A stretch of DNA of 64,000 nucleotides from Parcubacteria bacterium C7867-001 (lineage in GTDB: Bacteria; Patescibacteriota; Minisyncoccia; Phycocordibacterales; Phycocordibacteraceae). The notes under the pieces were generated by a model, which was given only the letters and a program-made list of their open reading frames with translations, ran no database searches and was not told the origin of the DNA. Shown piece after piece: positions 10,702-61,307 of this stretch (position 1 is its first letter; each line of letters starts with the position of its first letter). The translations under genes and the position numbers were made by a program. Location: contig LFCK01000001.1 of assembly GCA_001189095.1 (NCBI GenBank), positions 149,251-213,250 of the forward strand, read 5' to 3'.

Positions 10702-10727
10702 GTTCCAGTTTTCAGAAAATAACGGGC

Positions 10728-10800
10728 GCCGCGTAGCGGCGCCCGTTTTCTAAAACCTCTAAAATCGAAGTTTGTTAATTACGGGCGCCGCTACGCGGCG
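10728..10800 (+). terminator. Two copies of the same 9-bp-stem GC hairpin (gggcgccgc-NNN-gcggcgccc) 52 nt apart in inverted orientation, each followed by a T-tract
   Basis: 10728-10748 has loop gta and 10780-10800 has loop tac. The second is the exact reverse complement of the first. Confidence 0.6.
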
Positions 10801-10820
10801 CCCGTGTTATTTTTAGCGTA

Positions 10821-13687: not shown

Positions 13688-14071
13688 ATGGCCACCTCAT
13701 CACTTCCTGCAGCCCTCGTCCTCACGCTCGGTCAGCCGACCGTCTGGGGTCTTATCGGACAAATCATCGCGATCATCGATCAGGTGCTCGTGCCGCTCCT
13801 TTTCGCGGTCGCGTTCATTGTCTTCATTTACGGTGTTTACCAGTACTTCATTGCGGGTGGTGCCGATGAGGAGAAGCGAAAGAAAGGCCGTGAGCTCGTC
13901 ATGTATGGCCTTATTGGCTTCTTTATCATGATTACTGTCTGGGGTCTCGTGAACGTGCTTGTGGCGTCGCTCGGCTTCGGCTCGCAGAGCCGTCCTGCAC
14001 TCCCATGCTTCACGGGCTACTGCTCAGGAGGTGGTAGCGGCATAAACGTCAATATCAACATACCGCTCTAG
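13688..14071 (+). CDS. T4SS-pilin-like small membrane protein (paralogue 2)
   Basis: Core LVPLLFAVAFIVFIYGVYQYFIAGGADEEKRKKGRELVMYGLIGFFIMITVWGLVNVL. Gly-rich C-terminal tail. Confidence 0.75.
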   Translation: MATSSLPAALVLTLGQPTVWGLIGQIIAIIDQVLVPLLFAVAFIVFIYGVYQYFIAGGADEEKRKKGRELVMYGLIGFFIMITVWGLVNVLVASLGFGSQSRPALPCFTGYCSGGGSGINVNINIPL

Positions 14072-14132: not shown

Positions 14133-14489
14133 ATGAAAAAAATTGCTTATTTGGGTTCGATGCTCGCGCTCCCGATGCTCGCGTTTGCGGCAATCGGTAG
14201 CATTCAAGATCTCGGAAACTTCTTTATAAATCTCATCAACACGGTGCTCGTGCCGCTCGTGTTCGCGCTCGCCTTCATCGTGTTCATCTGGGGCGTGTTC
14301 ATGTACTTCATTCAGGGCGGCGCCGATGAAGAGAAGCGCGAAAAGGGCCGTGTGCTCATGCTCTACGGTATCGTCGGCTTCTTCCTCATGGTCTCGGTTT
14401 GGGGTCTTGTGAACATCCTCATCGGTACGTTCAACCTCAACAACACGACCGGTCCTTCTTCCGGCTTCCCGCAAGCTCCGACCAAATAA
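14133..14489 (+). CDS. T4SS-pilin-like small membrane protein (paralogue 3)
   Basis: Signal peptide, then LVPLVFALAFIVFIWGVFMYFIQGGADEEKREKGRVLMLYGIVGFFLMVSVWGLVNIL. Nearly identical core to paralogue 2. Confidence 0.8.
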   Translation: MKKIAYLGSMLALPMLAFAAIGSIQDLGNFFINLINTVLVPLVFALAFIVFIWGVFMYFIQGGADEEKREKGRVLMLYGIVGFFLMVSVWGLVNILIGTFNLNNTTGPSSGFPQAPTK

Positions 14490-16466: not shown

Positions 16467-16553
16467 TAGGACCCTCCTGTTGGTTAATTCGTACCTCGGT
16501 TCTCAAGGTACTTCTGGTACTAAATTAAACAGAAATTACGCTAAAGTCAAGTG

Positions 16554-16637
16554 TGCCGAGGGTGGGAATCGAACCCACACGAACTTTCGTTCACGACGGT
16601 TTAAGCGTCGCGTGTCTACCAATTCCACCACCTCGGC
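16554..16637 (-). tRNA. tRNA-Leu (anticodon TAA)
   Basis: Cloverleaf folded by hand. Acceptor gccgagg/cctcggc. Anticodon stem cgacg/cgtcg with loop cttaaac. Long variable arm. T-loop ggttcgattcc. Confidence 0.85.
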
Positions 16638-16784
16638 AATTTCTACAGGGTACTCGGATACCCCTTCCGTATCAAATGCTTTATTGTTAGGATTGCTAAC
16701 ATTGCGCCCATATGGAAATTCCCATATGGCCGCTCGTTCGGCGCAAAAGAATGATACGTAGTATCATTCTTTTGACCTCACTTT

Positions 16785-16857
16785 GCGCCCATAGCTCAGT
16801 TGGTAGAGCAACTGCCTCTTAAGCAGTGGGTCCCAGGTTCGAGCCCTGGTGGGCGCA
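16785..16857 (+). tRNA. tRNA-Lys (anticodon CTT)
   Basis: Acceptor gcgccca/tgggcgc. D-arm gctcagttggtagagc. Anticodon stem actgc/gcagt with loop ctcttaa. T-loop ggttcgagccc. Followed by a long perfect hairpin terminator (16858-16902). Confidence 0.9.
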
Positions 16858-16910
16858 CAAAGACAGAAAAACCTGCCCTGCGGCAGGTTTTTCTGTCTTT
16901 GTGCGAGCCG

Positions 16911-16975
16911 CAGCCATGTTTTGTCAGTAGACAAAACGGCGAGGCGGGATCGCGGAATTTTGCGAGTGTCGACGA
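16911..16975 (+). repeat. Copy A of a ~65-nt conserved non-coding element (gttttgtcagYagacaaaacSgcgaggcgg ... gagtgtcgacgag)
   Basis: Second copy at 61110-61174 with the same two conserved blocks and a variable middle. Both copies sit next to tRNA sequence. Confidence 0.6.
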
Positions 16976-17003
16976 GCAAAAGATCTGTGATCACAAAATC
17001 CAG

Positions 17004-17085
17004 TGCCGAGGAGAGGACTCGAACCTCCATCCCTTGCGGGGCCTGCTCCTAAGGCAGGTGCGTCTACCAATTTCGCCACCTCGGC
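17004..17085 (-). tRNA. tRNA-Leu (anticodon TAG)
   Basis: Acceptor gccgagg/cctcggc. Anticodon stem cctgc/gcagg with loop cttagga. Long variable arm. T-loop ggttcgagtcc. Confidence 0.85.
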
Positions 17086-17092
17086 AATCTTG

Positions 17093-17164
17093 AGGCCCGA
17101 ACGGGAATTGAACCCGTGCATAGCGGGTTTGCAATCCGCCGCGTTACCACTTCGCCATCGGGCC
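17093..17164 (-). tRNA. tRNA-Cys (anticodon GCA)
   Basis: Acceptor ggcccga/tcgggcc. Anticodon loop ttgcaaa. T-loop ggttcaattcc. Confidence 0.8.
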
Positions 17165-24654: not shown

Positions 24655-24806
24655 ATGCGGGCCCACGAGGACCGCGAGTACGCGTATCGGTCCTTACAGG
24701 ACCTGTACACGTTGCGGATATTTCAGTTCGCCTCACTCCTGAAATATGCTCGCAACATTTTCGATTCCTCGACGCAGACGCCCCGCGTCTGCGTGGGCCC
24801 GCATGC
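24655..24806. repeat. Hairpin-rich ~150-nt element closed by inverted copies of the tRNA-Trp 3' end
   Basis: gcgggcccacgagg at 24659-24672 and tcgattcctcg[22-nt palindromic insert]tgggcccgc at 24764-24806. Both match the T-arm/acceptor 3' segment of the adjacent tRNA-Trp. At least three internal hairpins lie between them. Confidence 0.5.
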
Positions 24807-24835
24807 AAAAACCGCCTTGCGGCGGCTTTGCAGTG

Positions 24836-24906
24836 CGGGCCCACGAGGAATCGAACCTCGGCCGACGGTTTTGGAGACCGACGTTCTACCATTAAACTAT
24901 AGGCCC
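24836..24906 (-). tRNA. tRNA-Trp (anticodon CCA)
   Basis: Acceptor gggccta/tgggccc. Anticodon loop ctccaaa. T-loop ggttcgattcc. Hairpin plus T5 terminator downstream on the minus strand (24808-24832). Confidence 0.85.
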
Positions 24907-45057: not shown

Positions 45058-45131
45058 TGGGAGATCGTCTAATGGTAGGACAGCGGCCTTTGAAGCCGTG
45101 AATCTAGGTTCGATCCCTAGTCTCCCAGCCA
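45058..45131 (+). tRNA. tRNA-Gln (anticodon TTG), CCA encoded
   Basis: Acceptor tgggaga/tctccca (U1-A72). Anticodon loop ctttgaa. T-loop ggttcgatccc. Ends ...cagcca. Confidence 0.9.
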
Positions 45132-45303
45132 GCTTATGCTAAGTCAGGTGACTGACACGCATAGCTTCTCCGCCCCGTCACAGCATACCGGCTGAGAGCC
45201 GTATTCAGACAGAAAAGACCGCTCCGAAAGAGCGGTCTTTTCTGTTATCAATATTCAAAATATTAACTAGCAAAGACAGAGCAGTAGCTGGTATTATAAG
45301 GCT

Positions 45304-45876
45304 ATGTCTCTAGAACAATACTCCATTTTTCTAACTCTCGGCCTCTTTGGAATGTTTGGCTTAGTAGTCATAAGTGCTGTTCTATATTTTTTGATTCCTA
45401 AGGTGCGTAATCACATACGTTCGCACAGCTACGCAAACTTCCTTGCGGCGATCGGTCTCATATCAGTAGCATCAATCATAGGAGCTCTTACCTATCAGCT
45501 CGTGTACCTGACTCCGGTCTGCGAACTCTGCTGGTGGCAACGTATTTTCCTTTTTCCAATAGGCGTCATTGCCGCAGTGGCATTATGGTACAAGACCAGA
45601 GAAGCGCACGTTACAATCGCAATCCTCTCAGCTATAGGACTTTTCTATGCCTGCTACCATTACTACTATCATTTCCAAGGGCTGGTTCTCGGAAATACGC
45701 TCTCGCTCCCATGCTCTTTCGTGGGTCTTCTCCCTGCGTGCACTAACTCGCCGATACTCACTTTCGGCTTTGTAACGATTCCATTCATGGGCATCCTTGT
45801 ATTTTCCAGCATGCTGATATTAGCTGCCTTTGCCCATATGAAAGCTAAACGTGACGCTAAGCCAAACACGGTATAA
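45304..45876 (+). CDS. Disulfide bond formation protein DsbB/BdbC family
   Basis: Four TM helices. First Cys pair in PVCELCWWQRIF (compare BdbC PCVLCWYQR) and second pair PCSFVGLLPAC. Confidence 0.7.
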   Translation: MSLEQYSIFLTLGLFGMFGLVVISAVLYFLIPKVRNHIRSHSYANFLAAIGLISVASIIGALTYQLVYLTPVCELCWWQRIFLFPIGVIAAVALWYKTREAHVTIAILSAIGLFYACYHYYYHFQGLVLGNTLSLPCSFVGLLPACTNSPILTFGFVTIPFMGILVFSSMLILAAFAHMKAKRDAKPNTV

Positions 45877-45885
45877 TCTTTACAT

Positions 45886-46545
45886 ATGAAAATGAACTCG
45901 ACTGCATGGTGGGTTATTGGTGTGCTCGTGGTGGCAGGAGGCCTCATATTCTTATCCAATATGCTACGCACGGCGTCTACTCCTTCAACAGAAGAGGCTT
46001 CAGAGGTGCTTACGCTTGTAGCGGATGACCACAAGAAAGGGGCAGAAGACGGAAAAGTTGTCCTTGTTGAATATCTCGATTTTGAATGTGAGGCTTGTGG
46101 CGCGTACTATCCTGTTGTTAAACAGATGGAAGAGGAATTTGGGAACCGCGTGACATTCGTCGCAAGGTATTTTCCTCTTCAGGGACACAGGAACGGCATG
46201 ACTGCAGCACTTGCAGCTGAGGCAGCGGGTCGCCAGGGAAAGTTCTGGGAGATGCACGATCTTATGTATACTCGTCAGAAGGACTGGGGTGAAAAGCAGG
46301 TTTCGACTCCAGAAGTATTCGAGGAATATGCACAAGAATTGGGGCTTAACATGGAGCAGTTCAAAACAGATGTTGCGTCAGCTTCTGTAAAGGAGCGGGT
46401 AGAACGAAATCTTAACCAAGCAATTGAACTCAAACTTCAAGGAACACCCTCGTTTTTCCTTCAGGGAAAGAAAATTGCGAATCCGCAATCGCCAGAAGCA
46501 TTTAAGGCACTTATCCGGGCAGAGCTCGAGCGCGCTGGCTCATAA
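45886..46545 (+). CDS. DsbA/BdbD-like thiol:disulfide oxidoreductase (thioredoxin fold, CEAC active site), membrane-anchored
   Basis: N-terminal TM helix. VEYLDFECEACGAYYP active site. Thioredoxin-fold spacing. Confidence 0.75.
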   Translation: MKMNSTAWWVIGVLVVAGGLIFLSNMLRTASTPSTEEASEVLTLVADDHKKGAEDGKVVLVEYLDFECEACGAYYPVVKQMEEEFGNRVTFVARYFPLQGHRNGMTAALAAEAAGRQGKFWEMHDLMYTRQKDWGEKQVSTPEVFEEYAQELGLNMEQFKTDVASASVKERVERNLNQAIELKLQGTPSFFLQGKKIANPQSPEAFKALIRAELERAGS

Positions 46546-46566
46546 GTATCAGTATCAATCTTTATT

Positions 46567-47307
46567 ATGGACAAAGAAACACACATCGCCGCATCTACCG
46601 AATCTAAGCTCTCAACGCCAGTCGCCATACTTCTCGGCGCGCTCATTATCGCCGGAGCGGTACTCGTAACGAAGTACATGCCCGCGCCAAACAGCGCAAA
46701 CGTGGCGGCGCCTGGACAGCCTCAGGCTCAATCTGCAAATCTTGAAGCAGTGCGTCCGATAGGCGCGGAAGATCATATTCGTGGGAATCCCGATGCTCCT
46801 GTAAAGGTAGTCATGTATTCAGATACTGAGTGTCCATTCTGCAAGCGTTTCCATAACACCATGCAGGAACTTATGAGCACCTATGGTGCAGAAGGTAAAG
46901 TCGCATGGGTATACCGTCATTTCCCGCTTGACCAACTTCACAAAAAAGCACGCAAGGAAGCAGTCGCTAGCGAGTGCGCCGCAGAGCAAGGAGGTAACGA
47001 TGCTTTCTGGGCATACATGGATCGCATGATGGAGATAACCCCTTCTAACGATGGTCTTGACTCGGCGGAGCTTCCGAAGATAGCGGCGTTCATTGGACTT
47101 GATGTGACGAAGTTCAATGCATGTCTTTCCTCAGACAAATACGCAAAGCGCGTGCAGGACGATGCGGACAATGCGCTTAAAACAGGGGGTCAAGGAACTC
47201 CGTGGAGTATCGTTATTGGACCAAACGGGAAGAAGTACGAGCTATCAGGGGCGCAACCAATCGACGCAGTACGTCAGCTGGTTGATATTGCGCTAGCAGA
47301 TAAATAA
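46567..47307 (+). CDS. DsbA-like thiol:disulfide oxidoreductase (CPFC active site), membrane-anchored
   Basis: VVMYSDTECPFCKRFH active site. TM anchor near the N-terminus. Confidence 0.75.
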   Translation: MDKETHIAASTESKLSTPVAILLGALIIAGAVLVTKYMPAPNSANVAAPGQPQAQSANLEAVRPIGAEDHIRGNPDAPVKVVMYSDTECPFCKRFHNTMQELMSTYGAEGKVAWVYRHFPLDQLHKKARKEAVASECAAEQGGNDAFWAYMDRMMEITPSNDGLDSAELPKIAAFIGLDVTKFNACLSSDKYAKRVQDDADNALKTGGQGTPWSIVIGPNGKKYELSGAQPIDAVRQLVDIALADK

Positions 47308-47311
47308 CCGA

Positions 47312-47845
47312 ATGAAAGAGACTCTTGCTAAGGTCTTCAAAGAAACCAGAAGCAAGATTATTGCGACAGGTTCAATGTTAGTACTTTTCAGTGCCATCGC
47401 GCTTGTTCCAAATGCCGGGGTGTTGGGACAGGTGTTTGGCTCGTCAGTGCCATTTGCTCAGAAGGTAGCTTTTTCCTTTACGTTGCTTGGCTCTCCAGCA
47501 GCCAATGCAACTATGTTCGGTTTCGTTGCAATACTTGTAAGCATCTTCCTTTCGGGTGTGGTTATCGCGCTTGCAGTCTATGCCTTTAGCAAGCGTACGG
47601 AGAATGTGGGCGCGATGGGTGTATCAGGACTTGGCATGGTATCTGCGTTTATCGGCATCGGATGCGCGTCCTGCGGATCGCTCCTTCTGTCAGCTCTCAT
47701 TCCTATCTTGGGTATAGGGGCGTTTGTAAGCATCTTGCCGCTCGGCGGGCTTGAATTCAGTATTCTTGGTGTAGTCCTCTTGCTAGTATCGATCTACCTA
47801 CTTCTTATGCAGATAGCGAAACCGAGTGTGTGTGCTGTAGCATAG
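47312..47845 (+). CDS. Polytopic membrane protein with intramembrane CxxC (GIGCASCGS)
   Basis: About 5 TM helices. Directly downstream of the Dsb genes on the same strand. Confidence 0.5.
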   Translation: MKETLAKVFKETRSKIIATGSMLVLFSAIALVPNAGVLGQVFGSSVPFAQKVAFSFTLLGSPAANATMFGFVAILVSIFLSGVVIALAVYAFSKRTENVGAMGVSGLGMVSAFIGIGCASCGSLLLSALIPILGIGAFVSILPLGGLEFSILGVVLLLVSIYLLLMQIAKPSVCAVA

Positions 47846-47852
47846 ATATAGT

Positions 47853-48725
47853 ATGAGCAAGCATTCGCACGACAGCCAGGGAAACATTAAAATAGCGCTC
47901 TTTCTCAATATCTGTTTTACGATAATTGAGCTTATCGGAGGTCTTCTCACAAATAGTCTCGCCATTCTCTCGGACGCACTTCACGACTTCGGAGATACCA
48001 TCGTTCTCTCGCTTGCGTGGTATGCCGAAAAGAAATCTAAACAGGGTCCGGATGAGAAGCGCACGTATGGATATGCCCGTCTCTCGGTATTCTCCGCACT
48101 AGCGTCAGGAGCAGTCTTGATCGGCGGCTCTCTCTTTATCGTCTCACAAGCTATTCCTCGTCTCTTCAATCCTGAAGCAGTTAATGCGCCTGGAATGATG
48201 ATTCTCGCGGTGGTTGGAATCGTATTTAATGGCATCGGCGCATACCGCCTGAAGAAGGGAAAGGGCATAAGCGAACGAGTACTTTCCTGGCATCTCTTTG
48301 AAGACGTGTTCGGATGGACTGCGATACTCATCGGTGGTGGGTTGATCTATCTCTTCGATCTGCCCATCCTCGATCCGATACTCACGATTGGCTTTACGCT
48401 CTTCATTCTGTGGGGTGTGATTCGCTCAATGGGAGAAGTGAGCAATATTCTTCTTGAAGGTGTGCCAGACCGGGTGAACCTGAAAGCTCTTAAGAACGAC
48501 ATTCAGGCATTTGAAGGAGTATTGGGTCTGCATGACGTACATGTTTGGTCTCTTGAAGGGAAGACGAACGTTCTCAGTGGCCATATCGTCATCAATCCTC
48601 AAAGTGTAGATGAGGGACGAGCTATACAGCAGAAAATAAAAGTGATGCTTAAGGAAAAGCATGATATTGAGCACGCCACCATCGAACTTGAGACGAATGG
48701 AAGCTGCGAAGGAAAACCTTGTTAG
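47853..48725 (+). CDS. Cation diffusion facilitator (CzcD/ZitB-like) metal efflux transporter
   Basis: His-rich N-terminus, TM core with LSDALHDFGDTIV (CDF signature), C-terminal cytoplasmic domain. 290 aa. Confidence 0.85.
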   Translation: MSKHSHDSQGNIKIALFLNICFTIIELIGGLLTNSLAILSDALHDFGDTIVLSLAWYAEKKSKQGPDEKRTYGYARLSVFSALASGAVLIGGSLFIVSQAIPRLFNPEAVNAPGMMILAVVGIVFNGIGAYRLKKGKGISERVLSWHLFEDVFGWTAILIGGGLIYLFDLPILDPILTIGFTLFILWGVIRSMGEVSNILLEGVPDRVNLKALKNDIQAFEGVLGLHDVHVWSLEGKTNVLSGHIVINPQSVDEGRAIQQKIKVMLKEKHDIEHATIELETNGSCEGKPC

Positions 48726-48909
48726 ATACTCTTTAAAGCTCTTACCTAAGCCATATTCTAGTCCACACTTCTTCATAAAAACATCATTGACCATGGTGCT
48801 ACCCACGCTATACTAGTAGTACTGGTTAGATACGGTTGTACTCAAGAAAAGCCTATATAGGCTTTTTTGTATTATGAAGAAACGCTGAACGTCCCTTCGC
48901 TTTCCTATA

Positions 48910-50004
48910 TTGCCTTCAATCTTTTTCTCCCGTTCTAAAGCTAATGCTAAGAAGCGCGGTACATACAAAGTTTATAGTTCGGTAGCAGCGGTTTTCGCTC
49001 TATCCTTTTTTATTCATATTGTGTCGCCGCAGTCTGTAGACGGCATTTTTCCTTTTCCACATACAGCACACGCTCAATCTGACGGCGAGGGTGGCATGAT
49101 TCATGACCCAACTATTGACCTGCTCGAAGCTGCCGTAAATTTCGACCCCAATCCAAACAAGGGTGACCATGAAATGGAACTCGCTGGAGGTATAGCACTC
49201 TTGCCTCACGGAGATATTCCGGAGGGCGAAGTCGGGGCATTAGACTCGAAAGCTTCTTCACCAAACAAAACAGGTATTGCAATCTATACCGTTAAGAAAG
49301 GTGACTCGCTCTCAGAGATTGCAGAGGAGTACGGTGTGTCTACAAAAACTATTCTGTGGGCGAACGATATACGAGATGCAAGCACTATTGGTATTGGAGA
49401 CGAGCTCATTATTCTTCCAGTCACAGGTGTTCAGCATAAAGTAGTGAGAGGGGAAACACTTCAATCTATCGCCAAGAAGTACGGTTCGGATGTAACTGAT
49501 ATTGCGCTCTACAACGGCATTAGCGAAAGCAAGGGTCTTATCGCAGGTTCCGAGATCATTGTCCCGGGCGGCGCATTCCCATCAGCTTCTCCAAAGAGTG
49601 TGGCAAGCACCGGTTCATCTAAGAAAAGTACTGCTTCAGCAAAGTCTTCAAGTACCTCTTCCTCATCAGGCAAGTTTGGGAACCCTCTCCCTGGTGGAGC
49701 TATCACGCAGGCAAATCATGGGTACAACGCCGTAGATATAGATGGTGAAACAGGAGACCCTATTTACGCTTCGGCAGGTGGTACGGTCCTTGTTGCTAAA
49801 GGAAGTGGCTGGAATGGTGGATACGGGAATTACGTAGTTATTGAACATGGAGGGGGAGCACAGACGCTCTATGCACACATGTCGAATGTTGCTGCGTCTG
49901 GCTCAGTATCTAAGGGTGATGTTATTGGGTACGTAGGAAATACAGGCAAGTCCACTGGGTCTCATCTTCACTTCGAGGTGCGAGGAGCAAGTAATCCTTT
50001 ATAA
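48910..50004 (+). CDS. LysM-domain M23 metalloendopeptidase
   Basis: Two LysM repeats (YTVKKGDSLSEIAEEYGVS...; HKVVRGETLQSIAKKYGSD...). M23 core GYNAVDIDGETGDPIYASAGGTV...HMSNVAASG...GNTGKSTGSHLHFEV. Confidence 0.8.
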   Translation: MPSIFFSRSKANAKKRGTYKVYSSVAAVFALSFFIHIVSPQSVDGIFPFPHTAHAQSDGEGGMIHDPTIDLLEAAVNFDPNPNKGDHEMELAGGIALLPHGDIPEGEVGALDSKASSPNKTGIAIYTVKKGDSLSEIAEEYGVSTKTILWANDIRDASTIGIGDELIILPVTGVQHKVVRGETLQSIAKKYGSDVTDIALYNGISESKGLIAGSEIIVPGGAFPSASPKSVASTGSSKKSTASAKSSSTSSSSGKFGNPLPGGAITQANHGYNAVDIDGETGDPIYASAGGTVLVAKGSGWNGGYGNYVVIEHGGGAQTLYAHMSNVAASGSVSKGDVIGYVGNTGKSTGSHLHFEVRGASNPL

Positions 50005-50030
50005 GCTTGATTTCAATCGGTATTTTTCTG

Positions 50031-51359
50031 TTATGCGACCGTTATTTTTTTATCTTTCAGAAATAGTTTGGTCTTGAGACATGAGAGCATCTCTCGCTTC
50101 TCGAATATCGTTCCTTCTTTCAGCAGGTACTTTGCGTAGTTCCTGATATCCACGTCTGGTGTTTGAACATCCTTCTTGTGTCCCAGCACACCCACTCTAA
50201 ATTTGTTGAATCGTGCTAGTTCTTGCTCTATCCGCGAGTGCATTCCTAGCTCATCCAGACTCAGTGTGTCCATAAGCTCCACCAGCCCGTCTATAAGTAG
50301 AGTCTCGTTGATATAGGGATTCTGGCATTCATCCCTACCTATCTTGCTACAGAAGTAGTACACATGCCGATTCACCCCTCCATCTTTAAGCTTCTTAAAC
50401 TTCTCGTCAGCAGTAATTCCTGAGGTGCAGTACCCGCATCGAATCAGCTTCGTGAAGGCGAACTCTTTACTCTCGGTTTTCGGTACGTACTTCTGGTCTA
50501 AGGCAACCTGCACCTTGTCGAACAGTTCTTTATCAATGACTGGGCTATGTCGTCCCGTGTACCAGTTACCACTCCCGACAGGGTACTCAAACTCCCCATA
50601 GTAGTACGGGTTCCGTAATATGAGGTAGATGTTTGCGAGCACGAGCGGTTTTCCGCGGTGCGTTTTGAATCCAGTATCCTCGAGCCATCGGTGTAGCTTT
50701 CTTCCGCTCCATTGTTCGTGCGCGACTTTCTCATACATCTGCCGAATCACATGTCCTCGCTTCGGATCTATTCTCGACTGGCATTTCTTATCAACATTCT
50801 TCTCATTCAAATAACCCGTGGGTGCGACTCCTGGTCGAAGTCCCATCTCACACCTCGTGCGAAGTCCACGTTTTACGTTCACCGCCTTGTTGTCATTCTC
50901 GAGCTTTGCCTGACTTCCTAGAATCATCAATAGAAACTTCTCATTCGGATTATTGGTGAATCGCTGTCCGTAGGTGCGTATTTCTACCAACTTCCCCTGA
51001 TCCATCAAATCCACCACCGACCCTAAGTCCCCAGCATTACGCGCCAGACGGTCGGGTGCCCACGTCAGGATGCCGTTGTACTTACCCTCACGAAGCTCGG
51101 CGAGCATTTCGTTGTATATCGGTCTTTGTCCAACCTCCTTAGAGGAGTGCGATTCTCGCTTGGTCTCTATTATGGTCAGTCCATCCCGCTCAGCTAAATT
51201 CAACATCTCCTTAACTTGCGATTCTATTGATAATGCCTGCTTATCCTCGGCTTCCGTCGATTTCCTCGCGTAGAGGCAGTATTTGATGGCTACTGCCTCT
51301 ATAAGAGGGACAGGTCTCGAAACCCCTTGTTTACGCTCACTTATTGCTATTTGTGTCAT
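50031..51359 (-). CDS. Large serine recombinase (resolvase-domain plus recombinase/zinc-ribbon domains)
   Basis: Catalytic AIKYCLYARKSTEAEDKQALSIESQ (Y-A-R-x-S-T serine motif), a later recombinase domain and a Cys cluster (CGYCTS...C). Start placed at MTQIAIS. The ORF track extends to 51518 but would overlap the divergent gene. Confidence 0.8.
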   Translation of the reverse strand: MTQIAISERKQGVSRPVPLIEAVAIKYCLYARKSTEAEDKQALSIESQVKEMLNLAERDGLTIIETKRESHSSKEVGQRPIYNEMLAELREGKYNGILTWAPDRLARNAGDLGSVVDLMDQGKLVEIRTYGQRFTNNPNEKFLLMILGSQAKLENDNKAVNVKRGLRTRCEMGLRPGVAPTGYLNEKNVDKKCQSRIDPKRGHVIRQMYEKVAHEQWSGRKLHRWLEDTGFKTHRGKPLVLANIYLILRNPYYYGEFEYPVGSGNWYTGRHSPVIDKELFDKVQVALDQKYVPKTESKEFAFTKLIRCGYCTSGITADEKFKKLKDGGVNRHVYYFCSKIGRDECQNPYINETLLIDGLVELMDTLSLDELGMHSRIEQELARFNKFRVGVLGHKKDVQTPDVDIRNYAKYLLKEGTIFEKREMLSCLKTKLFLKDKKITVA

Positions 51360-51516
51360 ACAACCACATTGATGACGCCGAACCCCATACGAGTCTAGAG
51401 CGGCTAAGACGCGTTGGAGTTGGCAGAGTCTGCCAGAGATTACTCTTTGTGTAGGCTGTAAATCAGGAGTAAAATGAAGCAAATGAGGCAAGCAAAAGTA
51501 AACGTATTTATTACAC

Positions 51517-52125
51517 ATGCAAGACGATCCATTTCTAGGAACTAAGGACGGGCTTAGTGTCCTAGGTGGAGAAGTATCTAATTTTTACCAATTAGGATTT
51601 GGTCAACTTGATATCAGCGAAGAGGAAATTAGTAAAGCTGGGCGATTGATACATGTTTTGTCGATTATAAAGCTTGAAGGATTACGTCCAGAAAAGTATC
51701 CCGCGAAGGGTGTAACGAATGATCATCACAGGCATTTACAAGGTGCATTATTCGCTTTTGGAACTGAAGGAGTTAATCACGAATGGAGAGAACACTCCGC
51801 ATCATCTATACGAGAAATGATTTCAGGCTTTGCTTCGTCTGAACTGGAATTTAATGAGAACGTAAGTAAGTATGGGACTAATCAGAATACTAATTCAGAT
51901 GAACTTAAAAAGATAGAATCGGCTTGTAAAAAAATAAAGAAGTACTACCAATTTTTTACTGGCGTAACACATCATCAACAGGCAGCCATTACTAATGGAT
52001 TCCGTCAATTAGAAGATTTAAGTGCAGAAAATGAAAGATGCTTGAGCGTCGATAGTTTTAAATTAGTGTTCAAACATTTCTTTATTGATTTGAAGAAAAT
52101 CATTACAGTATTTCCAGACCTATGA
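51517..52125 (+). CDS. Hypothetical protein (202 aa), translationally coupled to the next gene
   Basis: ATGA overlap with the 52122 start. No recognisable motif. AT-rich codon usage typical of the island. Confidence 0.5.
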   Translation: MQDDPFLGTKDGLSVLGGEVSNFYQLGFGQLDISEEEISKAGRLIHVLSIIKLEGLRPEKYPAKGVTNDHHRHLQGALFAFGTEGVNHEWREHSASSIREMISGFASSELEFNENVSKYGTNQNTNSDELKKIESACKKIKKYYQFFTGVTHHQQAAITNGFRQLEDLSAENERCLSVDSFKLVFKHFFIDLKKIITVFPDL

Positions 52126-55064
52126 AACAGCTTCAATTACATCGCAAAATAGATGAGTTTTTGAAAGCAGGAATTGCAACCGCGTCTGTTGATGTTGCGC
52201 AAGGGTTTATTCATGGTAACGAAGACTCAAAGCGGTATTTCTTTGCACAGGCAAATGAGTCTTGGCTAAGATGGTTCTTCGATAATGGTCTCTTTGAGGA
52301 ACTTAAGAAAAAAGCCGAAGATCCGACTAAGTACGGATACCGTCTTTCAGAACTTGAGTATCTAACAAGAATGGCGGATAAAGAGCCTCAGACTGTAGTG
52401 GATATTATTCTTTCCATCTCTATCACCAAGGACACCTTCAATCCTGAGGTAATAGATAGATTTTTCTGGATTACAGGACTACTGCCAATCACTCAAATAA
52501 AACAGATTCTACCAAAGATTCTCTCTGAAAATTGGTTGTTGCTGATGTCACCATTTAGTAAGTCTGGATACGAGTATCAGAAGATGGTCGAGAAGCTAAG
52601 TGAAGCTAAGGATTATGACGCTCTCCTTATTCTCACTCAAATCATTCTCACCGTTCGTGCAAAAGAAGAGTTCGCTGACTCGGAACGCTTTTTCATATCG
52701 GATAAATTGTTCTACCTTGGCGATATCAACGCTACGGGTATATTTGATGTAATCACAAATACTGAGAATCCAAAGAAAGAGGAGTTTTTGAAGGTTACCC
52801 TAGACACCCTCGCGATAGTTGTTGATTTGGGTAAAGAAAGAGAAGAGACTGTCTTTGATAAAACGGAACCGTTTTATTTACTCGATGTCGATATATTTGC
52901 TCTTGAACTTGATACGGGTAAGCGGTCTCATCTAAGAGAAGACATTCAAAATCTTGTTGCAACAGCTAAAGTTCTTGTTCGCTCTACAATCGGCTCTCTC
53001 TGTGAGAACGAGTTAGAAACAAGGCGAATATACGATACATATATTGCGACCCTGCCAGATAGTCTTACTTGCTGGAGATTGAAGCTCTACTCGATTACTC
53101 GTTGCCCCGAGGTCTTTAAAGTTGAAATCAAAGAGGCGTTATTCCGCGCATTCAATGTGGGAGAAAGATATTTTGAAATCGATGGAGGTGCCGAGTACCA
53201 TAGAGGTCTCATTGCTGGTTTTGGTGCACTTGATGATGCGACAAAAAGAGAGTATGTCAGCAAAGTCATTGAATATTACGGCGCTACTTTAGACGATAAG
53301 GATCGAGAGGGGTGGAGAAAGAGAGATGGTCTAGAGATATTAGGCTATATCAAAACTTATCTAACTCCAGAAGAATTCACAATCTCTGAACCAATCTTGG
53401 GAGTTATACCTACGGGTGAGGTTGTTGTACCACATCCGTCAGTCGGAAAAGTCACTAGTGGAATGGTACTCCACAAATCACCGTTTAACCCAGCAGATAT
53501 TACAATCGACGAACTCATTAATCACCTTAAAACTGACTCAACACCGAAAGCACTTAATGAGCAGTACAAGAATGACGATTTCCTCAGCCCGCGCGGAGCT
53601 GAGGGACTTAGTGATGCAATAAAAGAAGATTTTAAAATACGAAGAGTTGAGTATTTGAGCAATCTCAATAAGTTCTTTGACCGTGATGCAATTGACCCCG
53701 TGTATGTTTATGGACTTCTTCGTCAGGTAGAAGACATGCTTCGAGCAAAAGAAGCATTTAGTACTACTGAATATCTTCAGTTAATAAGCTTCTTTACTCT
53801 CATCGAACAATCTGGAACAGAGGTCGAATTTGAGCCAGCAGAGGAAAGACCTTACTGGGCTGACTGGATAACTGTGCACAAATCTATGGCAGATGTGTTA
53901 CTTGAGATTCTTGCACTAATGAAAGATTCCCAGACATTCAAAGATAATAGAGCACAAATATTCTCCTTGGTTAAATATCTTCTTTCCATCAAGAGTAGCC
54001 CTGATGCAGAGGACGATAAACGAGAATCAAATGAGCCAGCTCATGTAGCCATCAATTCCGTGCGTGGCCAGGCGTATAGAGCGTTCGTACAATTCACCTA
54101 TAACGAAGGAAATAAAACATTGTCGGAGGACGTAAAGACTCTCTACGAGCATGTGTTGGCTACTGATAGCTCAAACGCAGTCAGGTTTACGATAGGTCAA
54201 TTTTTGGCATCATTCTATTTCCGCGACATCCCGTTTATTACAAGTCTATTTCCAAAGCTATTCCCGAAAGCAGAAGCCGGTAAAGAAAAGGCTTACTTCG
54301 CGACATGGGAAGGGTATCTCGCGAGCTCGCTATACAAAGAGCTTTTTGAAGCACTTAGGGAATATTACGAATATGCAATAAACATCGATCCAGAGACGTA
54401 CCCTGATCGGAAATACCTCAAAGGATTAGATGAAACTCTTGCTGTCCATATCGCACTTGCGTACGCGCACTTCGATTTCAACATAGGTGATCCTTTGTTT
54501 GATCTATTCTGGAATACTGCTAATGAGACCCGTCATTACGAGTTCGTGTCATTTGTTGGGCGAACTTGTATCACTCGAAGTCAGGCTGGCGATGCTTGGT
54601 TTGCTGAAAATAATGTAAGCAAAGAAAAGCTCATTGAGTTCTGGAATTGGATTATTGCTACAGATATTCCGATTGAATCAAAAGCGTTTTCGGGCTTTGG
54701 GTTCTGGATAAATCCTGACAAGGAAATCATTGATGAGAAGATACTCATCCAAAACCTTTCAACTACTCTTGAAAAATCCGAGGGTGAGGTTGATTGGGAT
54801 TACGGTCTAACCCGTAGAATAAAAGTATTTGCTGAAATTGATCCAGAAAATACGCTCGAAATAATTCGACACTTCTTGTTGCAGGGTAACGAACTGAATT
54901 CGCATAGACGAGCACCTTTATTCAGTATTGATACTGAAATCAAAGAAGCTCTCGAGATTATCTATACGAACGAGCGACTAAAACAGGGTGTCGAAGACCT
55001 CATCAATCTTCTCATTGAAAGGGGTAGTAGTGTCTTCTGGGGGCTCAAAGACATCCTCAAATAG
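52122..55064 (+). CDS. Large hypothetical protein (980 aa, predicted alpha-helical, no recognisable catalytic motif)
   Basis: Single uninterrupted ORF. No Walker, HEPN, PD-(D/E)xK or zinc-finger motifs visible by eye. Weak hairpin (agggc ttcgcaa gccct) after the stop. Confidence 0.6.
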   Translation: MKQLQLHRKIDEFLKAGIATASVDVAQGFIHGNEDSKRYFFAQANESWLRWFFDNGLFEELKKKAEDPTKYGYRLSELEYLTRMADKEPQTVVDIILSISITKDTFNPEVIDRFFWITGLLPITQIKQILPKILSENWLLLMSPFSKSGYEYQKMVEKLSEAKDYDALLILTQIILTVRAKEEFADSERFFISDKLFYLGDINATGIFDVITNTENPKKEEFLKVTLDTLAIVVDLGKEREETVFDKTEPFYLLDVDIFALELDTGKRSHLREDIQNLVATAKVLVRSTIGSLCENELETRRIYDTYIATLPDSLTCWRLKLYSITRCPEVFKVEIKEALFRAFNVGERYFEIDGGAEYHRGLIAGFGALDDATKREYVSKVIEYYGATLDDKDREGWRKRDGLEILGYIKTYLTPEEFTISEPILGVIPTGEVVVPHPSVGKVTSGMVLHKSPFNPADITIDELINHLKTDSTPKALNEQYKNDDFLSPRGAEGLSDAIKEDFKIRRVEYLSNLNKFFDRDAIDPVYVYGLLRQVEDMLRAKEAFSTTEYLQLISFFTLIEQSGTEVEFEPAEERPYWADWITVHKSMADVLLEILALMKDSQTFKDNRAQIFSLVKYLLSIKSSPDAEDDKRESNEPAHVAINSVRGQAYRAFVQFTYNEGNKTLSEDVKTLYEHVLATDSSNAVRFTIGQFLASFYFRDIPFITSLFPKLFPKAEAGKEKAYFATWEGYLASSLYKELFEALREYYEYAINIDPETYPDRKYLKGLDETLAVHIALAYAHFDFNIGDPLFDLFWNTANETRHYEFVSFVGRTCITRSQAGDAWFAENNVSKEKLIEFWNWIIATDIPIESKAFSGFGFWINPDKEIIDEKILIQNLSTTLEKSEGEVDWDYGLTRRIKVFAEIDPENTLEIIRHFLLQGNELNSHRRAPLFSIDTEIKEALEIIYTNERLKQGVEDLINLLIERGSSVFWGLKDILK

Positions 55065-55378
55065 AGCTGTTGGTAAGAGGGCTTCGCAAGGCCCTATATC
55101 TAAGCTAAGGTTCTAAAAGGTAGCGCAATTTGCTATCATAGTCCTTGTACAACAAAGACCTAACCTCTAGAAAACGCTTAGTTTCCTAGAGCATGGTCGG
55201 AATAACAAAACCGCTACAGTATAGAAGGCTCCTCGTCAGAGTCACTGTAGCGGTCGTGTACTCGAAAGGGTATATGGGTTAGGCCGAAAGGTCTGATCGC
55301 AATGGCGGGGAGCCTTCTGTCCCACGACTCTAGGCTCCCTGCTACTTATTAGCAGAAGCTAAAACCGCTACAGTGCAT

Positions 55379-56302
55379 ATGAATAAAAGTATACAAATAG
55401 GCGTATTCGCCTTAGGGATATTTATATTCCAAGCAACCAACGTTCACGCAACTGACTATAACTACCTGCCTCCCGATGTTCTCATCAAACAGCAGGAAGC
55501 GCAGTCAGCTCTTGAGTACCGACTGCAAAAACTAGAAGCATCCGTTTCGAGCGATTCGTCTGCATCTATTGCGAGCCTCAAGTCTCGTATATCCCAACTC
55601 GAATCAGAGCGCACAACGGAGAAAAACTATATCTCAGGAGTGTATGCTCAGAGTGGTATTGCCAATCAGCTCGAAGCTAAGTTAGCTGAGATTGATGCGA
55701 AATACGACTCCCATATAAGTAGCCTGAAGTCACAGTTATCGAAACTCGAGAGTTCAAGTTCAAGCCAGTCAAACAACGAGTCAGAGATCCAGTCCCTAAA
55801 GCTCCAGATTGCCCAGCTCAAGGATAAGATCGCCACTCAAGAACTTCAGGTCAGTGAACAGGCGCTCGAAAAGTATCAAACAAAATACGAGTACTCAGAT
55901 GCAGAAGTGTACGAGGTCTTTACCTATATAGATGCACTTGCTCTCCAAGACTCATCCAAGCTGTTCCAGCGCATCAAAGTCAATAATCCAGAAGTAGCGT
56001 CTCGGGTTGTCGCTTTCTACAACCAGAAGTACCCACACGGGAAGCCGGGCACTGCAATTAACGATGAGTACCTCGCTTCGCTTCCAAAGACAACGGCTCC
56101 CACGCCTACAAAAACTCAGGCTGGAGTAGCACCAACTGTTGTACCGAAAGAGGTAGCAACTACCGCGAAGGATTCTGTCCCAGCAGAATGGCAGATCCCT
56201 CCCACTCCTGAACCAGTCATCACTCCACCAGTAGAACCAAAGCCAACGTTCATTCAGAAAGTAATGAGCTTCTTTAGTCGATGGTTTTTCGGAGGAAAGT
56301 AG
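55379..56302 (+). CDS. Secreted coiled-coil protein with Pro/Thr-rich C-terminal region
   Basis: Signal peptide MNKSIQIGVFALGIFIFQATNVHA. Heptad-like Ser/Leu/Gln repeats. PTPTKTQAGVAPTVVPKE...PPTPEPVITPPVEPKP tail. Confidence 0.6.
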   Translation: MNKSIQIGVFALGIFIFQATNVHATDYNYLPPDVLIKQQEAQSALEYRLQKLEASVSSDSSASIASLKSRISQLESERTTEKNYISGVYAQSGIANQLEAKLAEIDAKYDSHISSLKSQLSKLESSSSSQSNNESEIQSLKLQIAQLKDKIATQELQVSEQALEKYQTKYEYSDAEVYEVFTYIDALALQDSSKLFQRIKVNNPEVASRVVAFYNQKYPHGKPGTAINDEYLASLPKTTAPTPTKTQAGVAPTVVPKEVATTAKDSVPAEWQIPPTPEPVITPPVEPKPTFIQKVMSFFSRWFFGGK

Positions 56303-56642
56303 TAGTTGTCCACAGCCCATCTTGGGACTAGGTTTTAAATTTCCCTTAAAACATAAAGGATTTTTACAAGGGCTTTCTAATGTTCAAAGTTAGAGACCAG
56401 TGTCTGTATCATTTTTGTGATAGCGTTAGCTCTAGAAGCACCAATCACATCAGACCTGATTCTGTGAGCCTAAGCCACTCGCACAATTAAATAAGCCAAT
56501 AAGTAAATCGTGACTTTCTCTACTTGTAGAGAAAGGTATTTCGATTTCTTTGCGGTTCGTCGAAAACCCACCAGAGAGTCGAAGTTAAACTTCGGAAATC
56601 TGGTGGATTTTTGCTTCTAATTACTTAGCTAATTAGAAAGAC

Positions 56643-57971
56643 ATGAACAAGGAAAACTTGAAGATCGAGTACGTAGCCATTGATCAGTTGAATGTGAACA
56701 CGCAGAATCCCCGTAAGTGGAGTGAAGAGCAGAAGAAACAACTCAAGGAGAGTATCAAGCGGTTCGGAAATGTTGATCCGATAATCGTAAATACCCACGA
56801 AGAGCGGAAGAACATTGTCGTAGGAGGACACTTCAGGCTAGAAGCGTGCAAGGAGCTTGGGTACAAGAATATGCCCGTGGTATTCGTGAACCTCACGCCT
56901 AAAAAGGAAGAGGAGCTCAACCTGCGCCTTAACCGCAACCAAGGAGAATTCAATCTTGAGATGCTCGCTAAATTCGACAGCGCAATGCTCCTTGATATCG
57001 GGTTCGACTCGGAAGACATCGATGAGATATTCCCGTCAGTAAAGCACGACCAAGAATTCAATCTTCAGGACGAACTCGACAAGCTCGATATCACGGTCGA
57101 AGCAAAGAAGGGTGAAGTGTATGACCTCGATGGCTCGCGCCTCATGATTGGCGACTCAACCATCGAAGCAGACATGCTGAAACTGATGGGAGATAACCGG
57201 GCGGATATGGTGCTAACAGATCCTCCCTATATCTTGGACTACCTCAAAGGCAAAGGTCGAGGAAAGGATGGTGCAACAGTGGGTTTCGGTTCCAAGAAGA
57301 ATCGTAGGTACCTTGAGACTGATATTCTACCAGACAACTTCAGCGAGTTGTGGATGGCAAATGTCGCCAAGGTCCAGAAGCCTGACTTCTCAATTATCAT
57401 CTTCGAGAACCCAAAGAACCTGCGAACTATTTGGAACGCACTTGAAGCGCACTGGAAGTACCGTAATACGATAACGTGGCATGTGCCCAATCGTATGCAA
57501 GGATTCTCAGCCGCGAATAAGTTCTTCAATAAGACGGACATTGCGCTCGTAGGAGCGAAAGGTGATGTTGCGCTCAACCTAGAACCAGAAGAAGAGCCGT
57601 TCCAGAACGAGTATGAGAACGCGATCTTCGCCACTTCAGGAAAGGCGCACTTCGAGCCGTATGAGAAAGGAAAGAAGATATGCCCGACTGACTTCATCTC
57701 GCACCCAGCGGCAGATAAGAAGTCGTCAGGTCAGGAGATTATCTTCGGCACTAAGCCCATTGAACTCCTCGTTCCGTATCTCAAGGTACTCACCAAGCGA
57801 AATGACCTCATCCTTGAACCGTTCGGTGGAAGCGGGAGCACCCTCATCGCCGCAGTGAAGATGGGTCGCCGGTGCTTCGTCATGGAGAAATCCCACGTCT
57901 ATGCGGAAGTGATTATGAACCGCTGGGAAAAAGAGACAGGCAAGAAGCGTAAGAAAGTCGTAACAGTATGA
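56643..57971 (+). CDS. ParB-like nuclease domain fused to a DNA methyltransferase (N6-adenine / N4-cytosine type)
   Basis: N-terminal ParB-N-like region (YVAIDQLNVNTQNPRKWSEEQ...VGGHFRLEA). Catalytic DPPY motif (VLTDPPYILDY). C-terminal SAM-binding FGGSGST. Confidence 0.8.
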   Translation: MNKENLKIEYVAIDQLNVNTQNPRKWSEEQKKQLKESIKRFGNVDPIIVNTHEERKNIVVGGHFRLEACKELGYKNMPVVFVNLTPKKEEELNLRLNRNQGEFNLEMLAKFDSAMLLDIGFDSEDIDEIFPSVKHDQEFNLQDELDKLDITVEAKKGEVYDLDGSRLMIGDSTIEADMLKLMGDNRADMVLTDPPYILDYLKGKGRGKDGATVGFGSKKNRRYLETDILPDNFSELWMANVAKVQKPDFSIIIFENPKNLRTIWNALEAHWKYRNTITWHVPNRMQGFSAANKFFNKTDIALVGAKGDVALNLEPEEEPFQNEYENAIFATSGKAHFEPYEKGKKICPTDFISHPAADKKSSGQEIIFGTKPIELLVPYLKVLTKRNDLILEPFGGSGSTLIAAVKMGRRCFVMEKSHVYAEVIMNRWEKETGKKRKKVVTV

Positions 57972-58354: not shown

Positions 58355-58375
58355 CTCTCTTTCAGAAGAACGCAT

Positions 58376-59434: not shown

Positions 59435-59457
59435 TCATTGTCTGATAAAATACAGCA

Positions 59458-60195: not shown

Positions 60196-60220
60196 GAACG
60201 GTACTTGTCTCGTATCTTCT

Positions 60221-60838: not shown

Positions 60839-61075
60839 AGGTATCGTTGATTGGCTTGTAAGTGAGACACCGACTGATATCTCCCTTACAGTGTCTCATT
60901 TGTCTTTTTTCGTTAGAATACCCTTATTGTGCCTACGGGAGAGTAGACTGAGACGCATGGAAACGAGACAGTTTAATTCGCTCAGAAACCCTTACGGGGT
61001 CTCACTCGGGTAGGTTCGAGACTGAGTCAGTCAGCAAAATAAGCGCAGCATATTTTGCTGTGGAGAAGAACACGG

Positions 61076-61252: not shown

Positions 61253-61307
61253 GTGAATCTAGCTGCATAAAAATAAAAGCGGGCGGAGCTATGCTCCGCC
61301 CGCGTTT

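Follow-up and report, generated by a model that had tools for sequence, protein, structure and literature searches.

What does a non-coding repeat do among the transfer RNA (tRNA) genes of Patescibacteria, bacteria with tiny genomes, single-copy tRNA genes, and little non-coding DNA? The question is raised by a stretch of 64,000 nucleotides (nt) of Parcubacteria bacterium C7867-001 (contig LFCK01000001.1, positions 149,251-213,250), which we call the window and whose own numbering is used below for its features. A preliminary description of the window, made from its letters alone, had reported a 65-nt element between tRNA-Lys and tRNA-Leu(TAG) (here copy A) that recurs 44 kb away (here copy B), and had offered three options for it: a small RNA, the recognition core of a recombinase or integrase, or an element that serves in tRNA processing or as a leader. 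We found that this element belongs to a real and widespread structured module that lies at the 3′ ends of tRNA genes in Patescibacteria. Many copies of the module are maintained across lineages labelled as different candidate phyla, despite the tiny genomes of these bacteria. The small RNA and the recombinase core remain the leading options, whereas a 5′ leader does not fit, as the module is always found 3′ of the tRNA.

A conserved two-hairpin core recurs across Patescibacteria

The repeat within the window is real and not a product of chance. The 20-nt palindromic block GTTTTGTCAGYAGACAAAAC matches the forward strand at exactly two positions of the 64 kb, 16918 and 61109; because the motif is palindromic and each copy is read on both strands, the scan counted four matches (2 copies × 2 strands), compared to 0.03 expected in shuffled sequences. 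The 13-mer GAGTGTCGACGAG is found without mismatch at 16964 and 61154, and the longest block common to the two copies spans 41 nt at 90% identity. The second copy 44 kb away is thus genuine, and the extent of 65 nt was set too short: the core is longer at both sites (Table 1) and is accompanied by a further hairpin (HP0) and a closing helix. When we searched 185,579 species-representative genomes with the exact pattern TTTTGTCNNNNGACAAAACNGCGAGG (21 specified bases), we found 20 loci, all 20 of them in metagenome-assembled genomes (MAGs) of Patescibacteria (candidate phyla radiation), including Saccharibacteria, Paceibacterota or Parcubacteria, and Moranii-, Veblen-, and Kaiserbacteria. The same pattern identified 32 further loci in metagenome contigs. 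The preliminary description had allowed for a duplication limited to the two window copies and not conserved in relatives; the 20 genome and 32 metagenome loci show that the repeat extends beyond the window. A covariance model (R1), built from a MAFFT alignment of 20 cores, gave 71 matches (32 in the window and genome loci and 39 in the metagenome loci), a total in which some contigs are present in both the genome and the metagenome collections. On the window itself, R1 returned no matches beyond the two known copies. Several contigs stop in or near the module, as expected of a multi-copy repeat. The module explains assembly breaks beside tRNA genes in Patescibacteria MAGs, and R1 can be used for its annotation.

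The conserved core measures 85-89 nt (about 88 nt) and consists of two hairpins, of which HP1 has an AGYA loop and HP2 a GNCG loop. In HP1, the outer stem (GCC/GGC) is followed by an internal loop with GNA opposite GA, a second stem (GCG/CGC), and the apex GUUUUGUC-AGYA-GACAAAAC, the loop of which is nearly invariant. HP2 is a long hairpin that follows a GG linker and carries a GNCG tetraloop, often over tandem GA/GA. Both hairpins lack a U tract, and their bulges are conserved. Some details of the first account change with this anatomy. The 7-bp hairpin given there has 8 bp and continues into a GCS/SGC stem with a compensatory C-G to G-C swap between the copies (GCC...GGC in copy A, GCG...CGC in copy B). 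The middle part that was said to diverge does differ between the copies, but it is in fact the 5′ strand of HP2 and covaries with a 3′ strand located beyond the right boundary of the 65-mer. Likewise, the GTCGAC palindrome, seen as the center of the second block, is particular to the two window copies; relatives mostly carry GCGACGGC, and the conserved feature is the GNCG tetraloop, an RNA-like apex.

A check of the hairpin for covariation, as had been suggested, revealed compensatory changes in 13 out of 25 pairs (RNAalifold, alignment of 20 cores). In an alignment of 32 sequences, which was fitted to the R1 model, double changes occur at 24 of the 25 pairs, and 95.1% of the paired cells are compatible with pairing, compared to 75.0% in shuffles and 39-47% with slid partners. 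There are 44 G.U or U.G pairs but only 15 A.C or C.A pairs, and at one fixed position a G.U pair is conserved; the excess of G.U over A.C therefore identifies the folding strand as the forward, tRNA-sense strand. Among R1 matches that were not constrained by the search pattern, the HP1 stems are very different and the loop is kept (e.g. CACCCAGUC-AGUA-GACUGGGUC and AUUUUGCC-AGCA-GGCAAAAU), with stem sequences that shift fully from AT-rich to GC-rich. Together, these observations demonstrate that the core and much of its flanks are under selection to fold on the tRNA-sense strand.

We also observed short variants with swapped apexes at L012 (4134-4200; L numbers denote individual loci) and at L040 (2119-2183 and 2780-2845). 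Here, a CGACGG apex sits on the HP1 base and a UUUUC-AGCA-GAAAA apex on HP2, and the two apical motifs are therefore interchangeable between arms.

As far as our searches reach, the module is apparently undescribed. Scans of the window and six loci with Rfam 15 at gathering thresholds found tRNAs and one LOOT RNA elsewhere and left the module unmatched, and permissive scans of both copies (E ≤ 10) produced noise on terminator-like hairpins and no family. The cores were not called by ARAGORN or by the Rfam models for tRNA and transfer-messenger RNA (tmRNA), which identified tRNA fragments in the flanks only. Our literature search retrieved no paper that contains the module sequence or describes such an element; the group I introns reported in tRNAs of Patescibacteria sit at anticodon-loop position 35/36 and are unrelated to the module. 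Several candidate identities were rejected. Protein coding was discarded because an indel between the copies breaks the frames (both strands translated by eye), and a viral origin because the pattern scans of IMG/VR gave 0 matches. Short likenesses to 5S ribosomal RNA or signal recognition particle RNA (GCCGUAGCG, AGCA) had no model support. Self-cleaving ribozymes were dismissed for want of hammerhead core motifs (CUGAUGA, GAAA) and of an Rfam match, and a box C/D or K-turn motif because the internal loop of HP1 is 3 × 2 nt and a K-turn needs 5 × 2. A kissing contact of the HP0 loop (CUGC) with the HP1 loop (GCAG) showed no covariation across loci when these were compared by eye.

Copies of the local tRNA 3′ end frame each core

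In 41 of the 53 units that we analyzed, a tRNA gene is located upstream on the same strand; the rest mostly have short upstream sequence in the locus or a decayed tRNA remnant only. At least 12 different tRNA species serve as hosts. The defining feature of the module, absent from the preliminary description, is that each copy is surrounded by inverted and direct copies of the 3′ end of its own tRNA. A unit runs from the tRNA 3′ end (X) through one or more hairpins (HP0), the reverse complement of X (rc(X)), and the core to a repetition of X, all within about 150-200 nt that encode no protein. The start of X distinguishes two types, being T-loop position 56/57 in type 2 (copy B) and the discriminator in type 1 (copy A). 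In type 1, the core begins at a constant 43-47 nt after the tRNA (15 loci), and the spacer forms one long hairpin, often perfect over 23-24 bp, whose 5′ arm starts 5-7 nt inside the tRNA; HP2 is followed by a short copy of the tRNA end and trailer, resulting in direct repeats of 5-7 nt. In type 2, X extends from T-loop position 56/57 through the acceptor 3′ strand and at times 15-19 nt into the trailer, and the direct repeats measure 15-37 nt and are identical to the local tRNA 3′ end. Those of L013 (32 nt) and L004 (37 nt) include 15-19 nt of trailer that is not part of the tRNA. The inverted arm is 9-24 nt long and reaches 1-4 nt deeper into the tRNA than the direct arm in both types; in type 2 it covers tRNA positions 53-65 or more, so that the core is preceded by ...TCGAAC. 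The two arms can form the closing helix (P1), which is more stable with cognate than with non-cognate flanks (means of -8.8 and -6.8 kcal/mol, respectively; p = 0.0012).

Where a tRNA gene has no CCA, its direct repeats have none either, and trailer sequence is included in them; they are therefore derived from DNA or a precursor transcript rather than from mature tRNA. They follow each genome's own tRNA even where the tRNAs differ, as between L010 and L036. Behind single tRNAs at L012, L014, and L020, we found tandem arrays of 2-4 units with strongly diverged cores and near-identical flanks. Occupancy varies as well. L012 shares its tRNA set and one homologous flanking open reading frame (ORF) with the window; its tRNA-Cys and tRNA-Leu(tag) are followed by units, whereas those of the window are not, and two units follow its tRNA-Lys(ctt). 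At L004 (6659-6480, reverse strand), a tRNA-Lys(ttt) pseudogene is preserved as far as its T-loop, where a small palindrome and the core interrupt it, and a degenerate 3′ end follows; an intact tRNA-Lys with a unit of its own lies 60 nt downstream of this pseudogene. The units are neighbored by tRNAs and housekeeping genes. An all-against-all BLAST comparison of flanking ORFs yielded only syntenic pairs, with no recurrent protein family and no integrase adjoining the units, so any enzyme involved must act in trans. No sigma-70-like promoter was found near either window copy.

Three routes to such repeats were rejected. Reverse transcription primed by a tRNA is incompatible with repeats that lack CCA where the gene lacks it and that include precursor trailer. 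Copying of the right repeat from the inverted arm by fold-back fails at L004, where the right repeat equals the left repeat and not the complement of the imperfect inverted region. Insertion of the IS91 or IS200/IS605 kind after GAAC, on the bottom strand, predicts a right flank that differs from the one observed.

Other arrangements of this kind were also seen. On the reverse strand of the window, a unit behind tRNA-Trp follows the same logic around an unrelated core (core2) that is unmatched by R1 (Table 1): a terminator hairpin comes first, then sequence complementary to the 3′ strand of the acceptor, a small hairpin and rc(X) GAGGAATCGAAAA (24770-24758), and finally core2 and a direct copy of the tRNA-Trp 3′ end (24672-24655). 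This suggests a broader class of such modules. L040 (2420-2700) and L048 (10520-10700) share about 250 nt that are conserved between them, without an Rfam match, upstream of units that have no detectable tRNA. The X repeats there terminate in ...GGCGCCACC and in this resemble a tRNA-like RNA at its 3′ end, possibly an undetected tmRNA or an unusual tRNA.

Possible insertion of a folded strand and alternative explanations

We lean, tentatively, towards the idea that the unit is a non-autonomous module that inserts at tRNA 3′ ends by way of a folded, att-like single strand. The mobile form would be such a folded strand, either single-stranded DNA or a strand extruded from duplex DNA. Within the fold, rc(X) would pair with X and stack on HP2, presenting a duplex right half of the tRNA target beside a half-site that is specific to the element. 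A recombinase acting in trans, probably encoded by the host, would exchange one strand with the tRNA gene at the junction of HP2 and X, and HP1 with its AGYA loop could provide the structure-specific handle for this enzyme. Replication of the exchange product would then give exactly X ... rc(X)-core-X and leave the tRNA intact. Under this model, the inverted arm would be 1-4 nt longer because it is able to pair with the incoming tRNA strand across the crossover. The folding of the strand and the target-derived repeats are observed, and we infer all steps beyond them. Crossovers in the T-loop and at the 3′ end are reportedly the classical sublocations of tRNA-integrating elements. If the model applies to the window, copy A would be an insertion of the 3′-end type behind tRNA-Lys and copy B a T-loop-type unit of tRNA-Gln displaced by a later 16-kb island, an assignment that we prefer with similar caution. 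A bolder version, which we consider unlikely, would have the module exist as a protein-less, almost fully paired single-stranded circle or hairpin of about 180 nt whose own tRNA-complementary arm finds tRNA genes and which a host enzyme integrates at T-loop position 56/57 or the discriminator; it would then be a mobile genetic element of a new kind and a target-programmable integration system, guided by nucleic acid and specific to Patescibacteria.

A number of observations weigh against insertion of a folded strand. No recombinase was identified and no excised or circular form was observed, and new systems that recombine single-stranded DNA are rare a priori. Strain variants offered no empty site, as all strain-level contigs on record carry the island. 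Several units (L007, L033) belong to what are probably tRNA operons, with only some 20 nt separating them from the following tRNA, and are therefore almost certainly transcribed; tandem G.A motifs and a conserved G.U pair are features typical of RNA. The retrieval pattern itself fixed HP1, and the covariation of this hairpin rests on about 11 extra model matches in the model-fitted alignment. Furthermore, compensation is found in place. The apparently orthologous tRNA-Ile loci L002 and L019 differ by four compensatory pairs, one of which links a tRNA acceptor base to its HP0 partner, and three compensatory changes between these loci were noted for HP0; copy B and L049, also apparently orthologous, keep two compensatory pairs in HP2; and the tRNA-Ser loci L010 and L036, likewise apparently orthologous, show compensation in HP0, with X matching the own tRNA in each. 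Such compensation fits a local function, for example as RNA, at least as well as mobility.

The alternative that we rank a close second is a non-coding RNA of the tRNA spacer. Transcription from the tRNA promoter would read through into the unit, which RNase Z, RNase P, and RNase III would release and which would persist as a compact RNA. Its ends would be closed by the tRNA-derived arms, its 3′ end would mimic a tRNA acceptor, the AGYA and GNCG loops would bind a conserved Patescibacteria factor, and the repeats would be local duplications of tRNA 3′ ends kept as helices. The position of the units suits such an RNA, as their orientation is always that of the tRNA and some lie between co-oriented, closely spaced tRNAs (L007/L033, L001, L017), whereas copy A has a terminator-like hairpin before its core and no promoter was found. 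The strong sense-strand covariation, with its G.U excess and its one conserved G.U pair, argues for an RNA as well, although apexes that can be swapped between arms would be odd for a fixed tertiary fold. Compensation at apparently orthologous loci, including the pair of acceptor base and HP0 at L002/L019 and the HP2 pairs of copy B and L049, points in the same direction, and so does the stronger closing helix with cognate flanks. In addition, an acceptor-like 5′ strand at L049 pairs with X (a U.G pair included), and type-1 units end in a helix and then AC/ACCA, as in local tRNA genes. On the other hand, the perfect direct repeats at L013 and L004 run into unpaired trailer that an RNA fold does not need, arrays combine diverged cores with identical flanks, and the same tRNA is occupied or not among relatives. 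Moreover, the RNA matches no Rfam family and has no function that we could name. If the strand-insertion idea is correct, the module would join the very few single-strand recombination systems (integron attC, CTX-type phages) as one that targets tRNAs and would point to a further recombinase with a simple, portable substrate. If it is instead an RNA, it would be among the most widespread undescribed RNA families of the Patescibacteria radiation and tied to tRNA maturation.

We find it rather improbable that rc(X) is a programmable guide, made of RNA or single-stranded DNA, that pairs to the tRNA T-loop or 3′ end for an effector, by analogy in principle with the exon- and intron-binding sites (EBS/IBS) of group II introns, the guide tetranucleotides of IS200/IS605, and the bridge RNAs of IS110. 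The conserved scaffold with arms matching at least 12 different tRNAs would suit a guide, and the arm is sometimes only wobble-complementary and shared at different targets (GGGATTCGAAG at both L036 and L040), which suggests that it is carried by the element. Other unusual RNA-guided systems are hosted by Patescibacteria, TIGR-Tas (PMC12045711) being an example. However, rc(X) is complementary to X itself, so that the two would be expected to pair in cis and not to engage a target, and the comparison of flanking ORFs revealed no co-occurring effector gene. Two further explanations are already disfavored. That the units are inert scars, functionless attL or attR segments left by larger integrase-encoding islands, is quite improbable: islands of this sort usually leave direct repeats of tRNA 3′ ends, and real islands are present at the tRNA-Gln genes of the window and of L049, yet a scar would not be expected to show 95% pairing, double changes at 24 of 25 pairs across phylum-level lineages, or compensation at apparently orthologous loci. 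No unit adjoins an integrase, and in the window the island apparently entered between tRNA-Gln and a unit that was already there. Least probable of all is a site acting as duplex DNA (an operator, a nucleoid-protein site, or an uptake sequence) or a transcription terminator. HP1 does form a perfect palindrome (GTTTTGTC-N4-GACAAAAC) and HP0 of copy A resembles a bidirectional terminator; against this, stems change wholly from AT-rich to GC-rich with the loop kept, G.U pairs exceed A.C pairs, bulges are conserved, HP1 and HP2 have no U tract, and two copies in 64 kb are far too few for an uptake sequence.

Comparison with known systems

In its workings, the module appears most like folded att sites and like remnants of tRNA islands that lack an integrase, and it fails membership of both, having neither R boxes nor intI on the one side and no integrase on the other. 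Like integron attC and the attP(+) of CTX phages, it combines conserved structure with variable sequence, folds strand-specifically, forms arrays, and carries no enzyme within the unit. In both attC and attP(+), as proposed for the module, an inverted-repeat pair folds to rebuild a duplex recombination site, and the single-strand exchange predicted from this yields the layout that we observed. By contrast, the module belongs to Patescibacteria, its arms are tRNA-derived, its 'loop' is the conserved two-hairpin core, intI, attI, and cassette ORFs are absent, and recombination itself is in this case our inference. The R''/R' boxes of attC (RYYYAAC/GTTRRRY) find a partial counterpart in the left junction of type-2 units (ATCGAAC, which is R''-like), with no GTTRRRY after the core, and the junctions of type 1 are altogether different. 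Integrative elements of tRNA genes and CIME remnants share with the module their direct repeats of tRNA 3′ ends, boundaries at the T-loop or 3′ end, accretion arrays, and an intact tRNA; the module differs from them in its size of 150-200 nt, the absence of an integrase, an extra inverted copy of the target, and a conserved, covarying core. The serine recombinase island of the window appears to be a separate, later insertion and not the source of the module.

Small RNAs derived from tRNA spacers are known from Escherichia coli, where they include 3'ETS-leuZ and ITS-metZW. They too are sense-oriented parts of tRNA operons, located in transcribed spacers that are either internal or 3′ external, and a release of the module by tRNA-processing enzymes would be alike. 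However, they are short, lineage-specific sponges that have no multi-hairpin conserved fold and no tRNA-derived flanking repeats and are not multi-copy. REP/REPIN sequences and PATE elements derived from IS200/IS605 resemble the module in being small, non-coding, hairpin-rich, multi-copy, and strand-specific, with an enzyme encoded elsewhere. The module deviates from them by its target duplications, its association with tRNAs, and the absence of a fixed target tetranucleotide, with GAAC|GCC at type-2 junctions and variable type-1 junctions; no RAYT or TnpA was seen beside the units. As with the tRNA-like RNAs (tmRNA, YrlA/Y RNAs), a type-2 unit can be drawn as an acceptor-like stem, a side arm (HP0), and a T-stem-like helix with a large insertion, the 3′ strand being identical to the tRNA. 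Unlike tmRNA and YrlA, it shows no mimic of a T-loop or D-loop and no tag ORF, and its tRNA-like part copies whichever tRNA lies upstream. Miniature inverted-repeat transposable elements are set apart by the inverted arms of the module, which copy the local tRNA and differ by locus, and by its duplication of 5-37 nt, which is not fixed. In contrast to CRISPR and TIGR arrays, the two window copies are 44 kb apart, and arrays elsewhere repeat the whole unit of about 170 nt.

The two window copies and their surroundings

The coordinates of both units and of the tRNA genes concerned are listed in Table 1.

Table 1. Features of the two units and related elements in the window (R1 E-values are rough).
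Feature	Position	Strand	Basis and remarks
tRNA-Leu(TAA)	16553-16637	-	ARAGORN, Rfam
tRNA-Lys(CTT), host of copy A	16785-16858	+	ARAGORN; Rfam tRNA, 73 bits; last 5 nt open HP0
HP0 of unit A	16854-16905	+	Perfect 24-bp hairpin with CTGC loop; inverted repeat 100% complementary
Core of copy A (type 1)	16906-16994	+	R1, 88 bits, E = 1.4e-17; fold; covariation
HP1 of copy A	16907-16946	+	Loop AGTA
HP2 of copy A	16948-16992	+	Loop GTCG above tandem GA/GA
X' of unit A (CACAAA)	16992-16997	+	Direct repeat of tRNA-Lys end and trailer, 16856-16861
tRNA-Leu(TAG)	17003-17085	-	ARAGORN, Rfam
tRNA-Cys(GCA)	17092-17164	-	ARAGORN, Rfam
core2 unit	24655-24834	-	Downstream of tRNA-Trp (24835-24906); core2 of about 85 nt (24757-24673)
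tRNA-Gln(TTG)	45058-45131	+	ARAGORN; 3′ end copied around copy B, now 16 kb away
LOOT RNA (RF03000)	55157-55298	+	50.4 bits (gathering threshold 46.4); inside the island
Degenerate tRNA-Gln, T-arm through 3′ end	61010-61037	+	19/28 nt, counted by hand
HP0 of unit B	61034-61058	+	Hairpin GCAAAATA...TATTTTGC; homologous position is a hairpin in L049 and L026
Left arm of unit B	61074-61097	+	GGAGTGATCGTCTA (tRNA-Gln 5′-end-like), then CTAGGGATCGAAC at 61085-61097
Core of copy B (type 2)	61097-61183	+	R1, 87 bits, E = 2.4e-17; HP1 loop AGCA, HP2 loop GTCG
X of unit B (CCCTAGTCTCCCAGC)	61201-61215	+	Direct copy of tRNA-Gln 3′ end (45117-45131 minus final CA)
Copy of tRNA-Gln 27-48	61241-61262	+	22 nt exact, equal to 45086-45107; outside the core

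ARAGORN and Rfam agree with the earlier reading of the tRNA cluster at 16553-17164 as Leu-TAA, Lys-CTT, Leu-TAG, and Cys-GCA, in which tRNA-Leu(TAA), tRNA-Leu(TAG), and tRNA-Cys(GCA) have no units of their own in the window. In unit A, the 5′ arm of HP0 consists of the tRNA-Lys 3′ end and trailer (X) and the 3′ arm of rc(X). The inner part of this hairpin looks like an intrinsic terminator by eye, and a terminator scan made no call there. The direct repeat X' can pair with TTTGTG at 16897-16902 and thereby close the core (helix P1).

Copy B does lie among fragments of tRNA-Gln, as previously described: a reverse complement of the T-arm, a piece of the 3′ end, and one of the anticodon arm. Its arm CTAGGGATCGAAC is the exact reverse complement of GTTCGATCCCTAG in tRNA-Gln (positions 53-65; 13/13), and X is preceded by an extra insert of 17 nt with a small hairpin (61187-61198). 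The order after the core is a 3′ piece of tRNA-Gln, a T-run, and a 5′ piece; the copy of positions 27-48 probably represents the 5′ portion of another truncated tRNA-Gln pseudogene. At L049, L026, and L045, a homologous unit is located about 84 nt behind tRNA-Gln; those of L049 and L026 are closely related to copy B, and HP2 shows two compensatory pairs between them.

In the window, tRNA-Gln is followed by a 16-kb island (45132-61009) that encodes DsbB, two DsbA-like proteins, a CzcD-type cation efflux protein, a LysM/M23 peptidase, TauE, a large serine recombinase (50031-51518, reverse strand), a ParB-N6/N4 DNA methylase, and several ORFs without a Pfam match. From the arrangement of these sequences, the island appears to have been inserted between tRNA-Gln and a pre-existing unit B, and the degenerate tRNA-Gln copy at its end would probably represent the right junction of the island that parted the two. 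We therefore rejected the island as an autonomous form of the module, as a later insertion at this site is more likely. GAGAC/GTCTC repeats cluster at about 60870-61030, near the right end of the island, and a homologous serine recombinase is encoded at L007 upstream of another displaced unit. The LOOT RNA within the island lies between ORFs of 980 and 309 amino acids, both without a Pfam match. In L055 (contig SRR2043728_5185), one metagenome assembly of this strain is interrupted at tRNA-Gln, some 46 nt beyond the peptidase gene, which is consistent with an assembly break induced by a repeat or polymorphism at the tRNA-Gln locus.

Further observations in the window

Two other repeats were observed in the window. 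Positions 10722-10746 and 10781-10805 form GC-rich arms of 25 nt that are 100% complementary, with 34 nt between them. A direct repeat of 187 nt with 74% identity (13773-13959 and 14233-14419) lies over two adjacent small ORFs (13688-14071 and 14133-14489), which are probably tandem paralogues.

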